The translations under genes were made by a program, and so were the position numbers. From Candidatus Limnocylindria bacterium (lineage in GTDB: Bacteria > Chloroflexota > Limnocylindria > QHBO01): a stretch of DNA of 33,800 nt. The notes under the pieces are model-generated. The model did no database searches. It was not told the origin of the DNA and was given only the letters and a program-made list of their open reading frames with translations. Every line of letters starts with the position of its first letter. Position 1 is the first letter of the stretch. Below are positions 12,644 to 12,937 of this stretch, piece by piece. The DNA lies in NCBI GenBank assembly GCA_038248695.1, contig JBBRXE010000003.1, positions 1 through 33,800 of the forward strand, read 5' to 3'.

Positions 12644-12937
12644 ATGGCGGACAACGACAAGGTTCTGGCCACCGACGAAGACGTCGAAGGTCACCGCGCT
12701 CGCACCAGCGACGACGATGTCGAGGGTCACCGCGCTCGTTTCAGCGGCGACGAGGATGTCGAGGGTCACCGCGCTCGTATTAGCGGCGACGAGGATGTCG
12801 AGGGTCACCGCGCTCGTATCAGCGGCGACGAGGATGTCGAGGGTCACCGCGCTCGTATTAGCGGCGACGAGGATGTCGAGGGTCACCGCGCTCGTATTAG
12901 CGGCGACGAGGATGTCGAGGGTCACCGCGCCCGGTAA
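12644..12937 (+). CDS. 97-aa tandem-repeat peptide (7 x D[ED]DVEGHRAR), candidate multi-core precursor
   Basis: Strong RBS, ATG, in-frame repeats with synonymous codon variation, and a TAA right after the last core. Confidence 0.85.
   Translation: MADNDKVLATDEDVEGHRARTSDDDVEGHRARFSGDEDVEGHRARISGDEDVEGHRARISGDEDVEGHRARISGDEDVEGHRARISGDEDVEGHRAR
12674..12934 (+). repeat. coding tandem repeat, 39-bp unit (first unit 36 bp), 7 cores
   Basis: Unit gacgaggatgtcgagggtcaccgcgctcgt(att/atc/ttc)agcggc read directly from the sequence. Confidence 0.97.

Follow-up and report, generated by a model that had tools for sequence, protein, structure and literature searches.

A family of small repeat proteins within a putative cyclic-nucleotide-controlled subtilase module of Chloroflexota and Actinomycetota

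A 33,800-nucleotide (nt) stretch of contig JBBRXE010000003.1 from a Candidatus Limnocylindria bacterium (hereafter the window, meaning the whole 33.8-kb stretch that was analysed) contains a 97-residue open reading frame (ORF) built from seven near-identical acidic repeats. On the sequence evidence, this ORF is part of a real gene family under selection at the protein level and not a chance frame, and the peptide is best explained as belonging to a conserved gene module of two phyla that is putatively controlled by cyclic nucleotide monophosphates (cNMPs). The neighbourhood suggests a signal-controlled peptide-processing system not seen before. In the reading we tentatively favour, at somewhat less than even confidence, the repeat protein would be a cNMP-induced, dedicated multi-site substrate of a GAF-controlled cytoplasmic subtilase, the fragments of which are possibly exported. 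The features of the window that bear on this reading are as follows.

10252-11814, + strand: MFS transporter, efflux-type (DHA3/EntS-like), with a C-terminal cNMP-binding domain (assigned with Pfam and NCBIfam)
11811-12512, + strand: Crp/Fnr-family regulator (cNMP_binding 6.9e-29, 100.1 bits; HTH_Crp_2 6.4e-17, 61.7 bits)
12521-12536, no strand assigned: palindrome TGTCGGCCAGTTGACA (TGTC-N8-GACA), candidate Crp-family operator, lying 123 nt before the ATG of the peptide gene
12633-12637, + strand: Shine-Dalgarno sequence GGGAG, 6 nt 5' of the peptide ATG
12644-12937, + strand: repeat-peptide gene, 97 residues, with a 10-residue leader and seven D[ED]DVEGHRAR units; predicted disordered
12673-12930, + strand: tandem array encoding the repeats (Tandem Repeats Finder: 39-bp period, 6.7 copies, 94% matches, score 425)
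12998-13774, + strand: GAF-domain protein, cNMP-type GAF at residues 35-173 (GAF 3.3e-20)
13787-14608, + strand: subtilase S8, 273 residues, catalytic domain only (Peptidase_S8 1.2e-27)

The peptide ORF opens with ATG, closes with TAA at 12935-12937 and translates to 97 residues. Its leader, MADNDKVLAT, is followed by D[ED]DVEGHRAR cores that start at residues 11, 23, 36, 49, 62, 75 and 88 and are joined by the linkers TS, FSG and four copies of ISG, with the stop codon directly after the last RAR. As read from the sequence, the peptide has neither Cys nor a hydrophobic N-terminus. This layout, including the lack of a signal peptide, is as described in the original prediction, which was made from the letters of the window alone. 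The encoding array is by far the strongest tandem repeat of the window, and the differences between its core DNA copies are all synonymous (GAA/GAG, GAC/GAT, CGC/CGT/CGG, GCT/GCC, ATT/ATC) apart from one E/D change. Such differences had been taken as a sign of selection on the protein; within the array that evidence is thin, because units 3-6 have identical core DNA, and it is the comparison of 458 motif instances across species, given below, that bears the idea out. Contigs from Logan for four public DNA runs all break inside the array and none spans it, so the seven copies have no independent confirmation. An AlphaFold2 model of the peptide has a mean predicted local distance difference test (pLDDT) score of 54, a predicted template-modelling score of 0.10 and no secondary structure, and the peptide is predicted to be an intrinsically disordered small protein. 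A hairpin 3' of the stop codon is not significant (z = -1.37), and a consensus scan found neither promoter nor terminator. The exact 97-residue sequence and four orthologous peptides, as delimited here, are absent from a collection of 15 billion proteins; gene callers may skip such ORFs or place their starts elsewhere.

Across species, the part of the repeat that is kept is short. The motif search across small proteins and ORFs that had been proposed as a check did recover a family, with a word-index search returning 64 small proteins whose only common feature is a repeated [DE][DE]D[VT]EGH. A pattern scan of one genome per species gave 599 matching stretches, and among the matches listed are the 79 loci analysed here, for which the phylum labels are those carried by the public records. 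Their arrays contain 2-13 motifs with a period of 12-56 residues (median 16) and quite different linkers, which are themselves low-complexity sub-repeats. In a logo of 421 distinct units, D is found at position -1 in 98%, V or T follows (85/15%), E is present in 95%, and positions -2 to -4 are acidic, while G and H are fixed by the anchor chosen. The residues after the motif His are variable and enriched in R/K; at positions +4 to +8, R does not exceed 28% nor K 13%, and no pair of residues is fixed. The RxR end that the original prediction included in a DVEGHRAR core is thus not a family-wide trait, and since RxR is not kept, the core must be shorter. The functional unit is best explained as the acidic motif [DE][DE]-D-[VT]-E-G-H, which would be shown 2-13 times on variable, mostly basic spacers. 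Conserved recognition-like segments alternate with variable stretches in these peptides, in a pattern like that of cyanobactin precursors, and 27 of 40 short-tailed arrays stop on R/K, 3-7 residues past the last His and in phase with the internal units. In composition, the family has no Cys, 5.5% His and 25% D+E.

The codons argue that this conservation acts on the protein. Synonymous codon use is seen at all five motif positions in the 458 instances: GAC 349 and GAT 109; GTC 362, GTG 22 and others; GAG 335 and GAA 123; GGC 311, GGT 113, GGG 24 and GGA 10; CAC 393 and CAT 65. Additionally, all 74 of the first peptide ORFs (74/74) start with ATG, and 63 of the 74 have GGAG or GAGG at -19 to -5, against a background of 0.14. 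We regard the peptide as the product of a real gene because the amino-acid motif stays constant while the DNA period, the linkers and the codons change. Frame-disrupting variation at homologous loci, which had been named in advance as evidence to the contrary, is present in 12 of the 79 loci (L034, L036, L050, L061, L064, L068, L082, L092, L093, L095, L105 and L109). All of these belong to the 42 records that have MFD isolate names, whereas the 37 others have no split array. They are probably explained by indel errors that arose when long reads were assembled across tandem repeats, with real pseudogenes as the alternative. PMC12313526 describes metagenome-assembled genomes (MAGs) from Nanopore long reads; the MFD prefix presumably marks these MAGs, and if so, indel errors are the likely cause of the split arrays.

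The family is large and undescribed. A profile search of 1.84 billion representatives returned 770 proteins at E <= 0.001 and 75 at E <= 1e-10; the 770 include some false matches, one of which (P0092) is an unrelated eukaryote-like repeat protein, and nearly all of the 150 listed matches are 50-240 residues long. The window peptide and eight relatives have no above-threshold match in Pfam, NCBIfam or PADLOC, only sub-threshold chance matches, and the nearest ESM Atlas clusters are annotated as 'hypothetical protein' of Actinomycetota and Chloroflexota with no common Pfam family. A full-text literature search, which did not extend to supplementary files, found no paper with the motif or a relevant related system. 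When fused or longer forms were sought, only two longer proteins were found, neither of them a domain fusion.

Several further motif-bearing proteins were seen. One subclass of the repeat peptides carries a conserved, basic, probably helical tail of 35-50 residues, …[LM]A[KR]AR..DI[EQ]R[ED]AR…K[RK]…KG, with no Pfam match, while Actinomycetota-labelled peptides often end in …GHVQPPRD.D…R instead. A second class of motif peptide, with 2-3 motifs and a conserved C-terminus of the kind …SPSSRGE or …RKGE, is encoded on the other strand immediately upstream of MFS-cNMP. In relatives, a protein of about 200 residues that adjoins the S8 gene, often convergently, has two D[VT]xGH motifs, the second continuing …GHA[MI]xLR[LF]P, followed by a hydrophobic helix and a tail of low complexity, with no significant Pfam match; this membrane-anchored two-motif protein was not found with this query in the genome of the window, which is 89.65% complete.

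Basic-tail peptides: L049:7953-8345, L063:7962-8765, L076:7992-8645, L097:7857-8387, L058:676-1035 and L098:3701-3982; also P0010, P0034 and P0036
Second-class peptides, - strand: L058:3599-3814, L064:11302-11595, L081:2849-3067, L095:11066-11356 and L098:6651-6959; also in L076 and L097
Two-motif protein of about 200 residues, - strand: L044:10298-10951; also in L051, L052, L072, L105, L117, L122 and L137

The neighbours of the peptide gene are conserved along with it. In the window the order is MFS-cNMP, Crp, peptide, GAF and S8, all on the + strand, and tblastn against the 79 loci finds S8 in 70 flanks, GAF in 67, Crp in 68 and MFS-cNMP in 60. The proposed tie to the neighbouring S8, GAF and Crp proteins therefore holds up across two phylum labels. 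All four partners are present at 36 of 47 Chloroflexota-labelled and 12 of 29 Actinomycetota-labelled loci, and most missing partners are at loci that lie at a contig end. Between the two groups the gene order is rearranged while the gene set is retained; many Actinomycetota-labelled loci have the order GAF-S8-peptide and a Crp gene that is read from the other strand. Of the partners, S8 is conserved best (51-60% identity across phyla), and GAF and S8 are adjacent in every locus inspected. Five peptide loci have none of the four partners in their flanks, and four of these five genomes have an S8 orthologue elsewhere; the fifth locus is a 3-kb contig of an 8.1-Mb bin (L075), in a genome without an S8 orthologue. 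L075 (3 kb) and L086 (6.8 kb) are labelled as Deltaproteobacteria and Steroidobacteraceae MAGs and are likely mis-binned contigs, and the Crp and MFS genes of L086 resemble those of Chloroflexota-labelled loci.

All-against-all clustering of the flanking ORFs yields one further recurrent neighbour, a class III nucleotide cyclase of about 1200 residues with zinc-ribbon, AAA_16 and TPR parts, of the STAND type. It is found in 14 of the 79 flanks (10 of the 29 Actinomycetota-labelled ones), one of these places being directly upstream of an orphan peptide gene. The families common to loci of both phyla are only S8, GAF, cNMP/Crp, MFS-cNMP and the peptide, together with this cyclase at its 14 of 79 loci. 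The 2.1-Mb genome of the window has 13 class III cyclase-domain matches, none of them on this contig. These matches, on contigs C67, C40, C131, C1 and others, include several open frames of about 1200 residues, and 13 is a large count for 2.1 Mb. The module itself is flanked by FAH, PALP and HgmA in conserved core synteny.

A candidate operator accompanies the peptide gene. The palindrome TGTCGGCCAGTTGACA is the sole TGTC-N8-GACA of the window and alone is not significant (32 of 100 shuffles contain at least one match). Across loci, 58 of 78 have an exact palindrome within the 260 nt that precede the first peptide ORF, and 76 of 78 have one with at most one mismatch, against a background of 0.022 per 260 nt; the usual position is 110-130 nt before the ATG. 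Of 96 exact sites in the 79 loci, 63 are at most 300 nt upstream of a peptide ORF, and the palindrome is present at orphan peptide loci too. Its shape, TGT-N10-ACA, is that of Crp-family sites. In E. coli CRP, a Glu reads the fourth base of the half-site. Most of 70 Crp homologues examined have the recognition helix TR[QP]SVN[RKQ], and the Q/P in place of the CRP Glu would fit TGTC instead of TGTG. Presumably, then, the module Crp binds TGTC-N8-GACA. In one Chloroflexota subclade an extra TGTC-N8-GACA lies about 0.4 kb downstream of S8 (e.g. L046:10405-10420), between a small ORF whose C-terminus is hydrophobic and a methionyl-tRNA-synthetase-like gene, and may extend the regulon.

Loci with the extra palindrome 3' of S8: L031, L038, L042, L045, L046, L051, L052, L090 and L108

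The domain types of the partners point to cNMP sensing and to an intact protease. The MFS protein matches MFS_1 (5.4e-31), MFS_3 (7.6e-22) and cNMP_binding (2.4e-20, residues 409-493). In NCBIfam it comes closest to the H+ antiporter subfamily TIGR00900, EntS, Tet(V) and Tap, without reaching the cut-off of any of these models. The regulator is a Crp/Fnr-family member, as both of its domain scores exceed the Pfam cut-offs. The nearest solved relatives of the GAF domain are those of an HD-GYP protein (9.3e-18), PDE2A GAF-B (5.4e-14) and the CyaB2 cyclase (8.8e-14). This GAF is by sequence of the cyclic-nucleotide type, with ligand binding putative, while the C-terminal stretch of about 85 residues matched nothing. 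The protease belongs to PF00082 (97.4 bits, cut-off 21.8) and has no signal peptide and no I9 pro-domain. Its Asp-His-Ser catalytic triad (D49, H91 and S235) and the oxyanion Asn (N174/N175) are invariant in 45 orthologues, which also have a nearly invariant AWSEPF near the N-terminus, and the nearest fold in the PDB to its model (pLDDT 86) is subtilisin BPN' (template-modelling score 0.69, to calcium-loop-deleted subtilisins). A GAF-S8 fusion, suggested by long open frames, was rejected, as the upstream frames are GC-rich non-coding readings. Downstream of S8, a PAS-histidine kinase gene (14703-15887, + strand) has an in-frame TAG at 14859-14861 (…GYIVS*NHGAERIKGY…), at a position where we take PAS domains to have a conserved Trp; a single TGG-to-TAG change would explain the stop, which may reflect a pseudogene, a strain variant or an assembly error.

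The association was also viewed from the side of the protease; it is given as counts, since related genomes are not independent. An S8 orthologue is present in 27 of 60 relatives, and 26 of these 27 belong to the same family, which is represented by 36 genomes. With the window included there are 28 S8 loci, 23 of which have a small ORF with at least two motifs (a count that includes the unpublished genome G009), with the variants DVSGH, DVTGH, DVQGH and DTQGH; of the loci without a repeat ORF, three lie at contig ends and one has a peptide upstream of Crp instead. When 200 genomes of the phylum were sampled evenly, 26 had the S8 orthologue (including the unpublished G199), and the peptide profile matched 12 genomes, namely 11 of the 26 S8-positive and 1 of the 174 S8-negative ones, the latter a genome that is 64% complete. 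The peptide is almost never found without the protease. Furthermore, among 13 further S8 loci in 11 profile-negative genomes, four hold divergent repeat peptides that the profile missed. Two such genomes from a distant family of the phylum, G159 and G167 (L150, L151 and L153), have the order S8 then GAF and peptides with variants such as DETEGH, or DVEGH with HHH after it, and as the profile missed these, the peptide family is wider than the profile counts suggest. Relative to the peptide, the GAF-S8 pair is the wider unit and probably also the older one.

From the observed motif-only conservation, neighbourhood, palindrome, intact catalytic residues and domain types, we infer every step of binding, cleavage, regulation and transport in the following scheme. 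A cNMP signal from STAND-type class III cyclases, which in some lineages are encoded next to the module, would activate the Crp-family regulator, which would bind TGTC-N8-GACA upstream of the peptide gene and induce peptide, GAF and S8. The cNMP-type GAF protein would control the adjacent cytoplasmic subtilase, and this enzyme would cut the repeat protein once per unit, freeing a short peptide that carries the motif in many copies. What the protease system reads would be D[VT]EGH, and the cNMP-gated efflux-type MFS may export the fragments. We favour this substrate reading because of the module with its operator, the three cNMP-sensor domains and the cyclase at some loci, and because an intact protease is paired with a disordered, substrate-like partner whose arrays stop in phase on R/K in 27 of 40 cases.

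Several observations weigh against the substrate reading. The logo of 421 units has no conserved cut site outside the motif, and acidic residues make poor subtilisin substrates. The low-complexity linkers, which look prone to slippage, fit spacers as well as products, and 12 of the 42 MFD-named records have frame-split arrays. A search for covariation between motif variants (E to S/T) and residues of S8 or GAF gave S8 P153G as the sole candidate, which is found in one clade only and also occurs with E-type arrays. G023 and G030 have no peptide in the extended S8 locus or the whole assembly, and at the remaining 9 of the 13 further S8 loci, which belong to other families of the phylum, there is neither a peptide nor any other tandem coding repeat. 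These GAF-S8 pairs without a peptide imply that the protease is independent of the peptide and may have other substrates.

A more specific form of the substrate reading, which we consider a speculative possibility, is a bacterial cytoplasmic counterpart of eukaryotic prohormone processing, in which soil Chloroflexota and Actinomycetota would transcribe a poly-unit precursor in response to cNMP, a minimal GAF-gated subtilase would cut it at each D[VT]EGH unit into unmodified peptides, and a cNMP-gated MFS would pump these out. The short peptides could then be a diffusible signal or a metal-binding agent. An amino-terminal X-X-His forms a copper/nickel site, and a cut before E-G-H would give such an end.

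The main rival, which we hold to be rather unlikely, is that the peptide is an uncleaved, unexported multivalent ligand or pseudo-substrate inside the cell, whose DVEGH repeats titrate the S8 active site (as an inhibitor or 'sponge') or the GAF protein and so set a threshold for the protease. As in multivalent display, the motif alone is kept while the spacers are internally repetitive and free in sequence and in length (12-56 residues); the S8 has no pro-domain, disorder is predicted for the peptide, and GAF-S8 pairs without a peptide fit an accessory regulator. Such a ligand would leave unexplained both the conserved efflux-type MFS (60 of 79 loci) and the in-phase array stops after R/K.

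A metal-binding repeat or metallophore precursor is less probable still. By this account D(-1), E(+1) and H(+3) would lie on one face of a strand as a carboxylate/imidazole site, with the protein buffering or delivering a metal, or with its fragments acting as an exported metallophore. The invariant D-x-E-x-H spacing after an acidic run, the Cys-free, His-containing and acidic composition of the family and an EntS-like efflux MFS within the module are all in keeping with this proposal, which because of the D-x-E-x-H alternation overlaps with the substrate and pseudo-substrate readings. However, the conserved neighbours include no metal-responsive regulator, metal transporter or metalloenzyme, control is apparently by cNMP, and V/T and G are as conserved as the putative ligands, which suggests protein recognition.

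It is improbable that the peptide is a stress hydrophilin, that is, a disordered protectant like the late embryogenesis abundant proteins, induced by cNMP in soil bacteria and merely cleared by S8 afterwards. The peptide is a disordered, highly charged repeat protein, and Hsp20 and other stress genes lie nearby in the family of the window, but these genes are not kept across phyla, where only the five module genes are, and a strict five-residue motif would be unusual for a bulk protectant. We think it very improbable that the module is a Pycsar-like anti-phage system of cyclase and cNMP effector, in which MFS-cNMP would be the effector at the membrane and the peptide would have an accessory role. 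In PADLOC, the cNMP domains and the cyclase found nearby do match Pycsar effectors and PycC at the domain level (down to E 1e-17), but these matches are confined to shared domains (the cNMP-binding domain at residues 400-493 of 520, and the cyclase domain), and PADLOC has no model for peptide, GAF and S8 as a system. Moreover, the module sits in conserved core synteny, is retained across the family (in 26 of 36 relatives) and comes with a transcription factor and the putative operator of that factor. Finally, that the ORF is a non-coding tandem DNA repeat left open by chance is hardly credible: GC-rich DNA yields many long spurious frames, the exact sequence is absent from the 15-billion-protein collection and the minus-strand frame opposite the gene (12548-13087) is open too, but the observed third-position changes would alter amino acids in that antisense frame, which disfavours it, and the amino-acid motif is kept across two phyla despite changing DNA period, linkers and codons, with the Shine-Dalgarno sequence and ATG conserved.

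If the substrate reading is true, hundreds of unannotated small genes (770 representative clusters, some of them false matches) would gain a role, and a five-gene cyclic-nucleotide circuit with its operator would be common to poorly known soil Chloroflexota and Actinomycetota. The peptide would be the first candidate substrate for a cytoplasmic GAF-associated subtilase, and the logic of a multi-copy precursor paired with a subtilase would extend to the bacterial cytoplasm without a tailoring enzyme. Were the prohormone-like form to hold, its secreted products, ribosomal, multi-copy and left untailored, would constitute a new peptide class, and no substrate system would have been known before for any protease under cNMP control. 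Cultured carriers exist, as Aeromicrobium records are among the 79 loci, so the question is directly testable.

By logic, the closest known systems are the fungal Kex2-processed repeat proteins (KEPs) and the cyanobactin precursors, and membership in either is excluded. The yeast alpha-factor precursor is a repeat precursor of the KEP type. KEPs are described as tandem near-identical units from which a subtilase-family endoprotease frees many peptides, with copy numbers that vary between species (PMC6339444, PMC7329392, PMC9769878). The module resembles them in pairing a small tandem-unit precursor of variable copy number with an S8 endoprotease, cleavage here being proposed. Whereas KEPs carry a signal peptide and fixed dibasic KR sites, and their kexin, in the secretory pathway, has a P-domain, here there is no signal peptide or hydrophobic N-terminus, no fixed KR/RR pair between units and a bacterial host, and the enzyme is a cytoplasmic catalytic domain of 273 residues that, lacking a P-domain, falls outside the kexin/furin group; control by cNMP sensors and export by an MFS would be further differences. 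Cyanobactins are made from multi-unit PatE precursors, in which hypervariable stretches are set between short conserved recognition sequences and which are cut by the co-encoded S8 enzymes PatA and PatG. The present peptides likewise alternate conserved motifs and variable stretches with an S8 encoded nearby, but their motif differs, the S8 scores 23.2 bits against a PatA/PatG cut-off of 421.05 (TIGR03895), and no heterocyclase, macrocyclase, domain of unknown function or other tailoring gene is conserved in the module, which places it outside the cyanobactins and other peptides of ribosomal origin that are modified after translation (RiPPs).

The protease itself is most like the cytoplasmic subtilases, namely the intracellular subtilisin proteases (ISPs) of Bacillus and QhpE, the latter of which cuts a dedicated small peptide substrate. 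It shares with them its predicted cytoplasmic location and the lack of a signal peptide and classical I9 pro-domain. QhpE is the second-best NCBIfam match (NF049966, 109 bits) and falls short of its cut-off of 165, and there are no QhpC/QhpD neighbours; the mycosin model TIGR03921 likewise gives 121.1 bits against 278.75, with no ESX genes among the window ORFs scanned. ISPs have an N-terminal inhibitory motif; this family has the nearly invariant AWSEPF near its own N-terminus, and we know of no GAF partner for ISPs or QhpE. On the regulatory side, mycobacteria provide examples of cAMP/Crp regulons and of cNMP-binding transporters. The Actinomycetota cAMP/Crp regulons are similar in their Crp regulator, TGT-N10-ACA-type palindrome, cNMP-type GAFs, STAND-type class III cyclases and MFS-cNMP fusions. 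In contrast to classical Crp regulons, the half-site here is TGTC and not TGTG, and the recognition helix has Q/P where E. coli CRP has Glu; the literature search found no Crp/cNMP regulon centred on a repeat peptide and a subtilase. Against Pycsar, PADLOC gave no full-length match to PycC or an effector model. The new parts are thus the undescribed peptide family and the undescribed cNMP-wired gene set, while the logic of a multi-copy peptide paired with a subtilase is already known.

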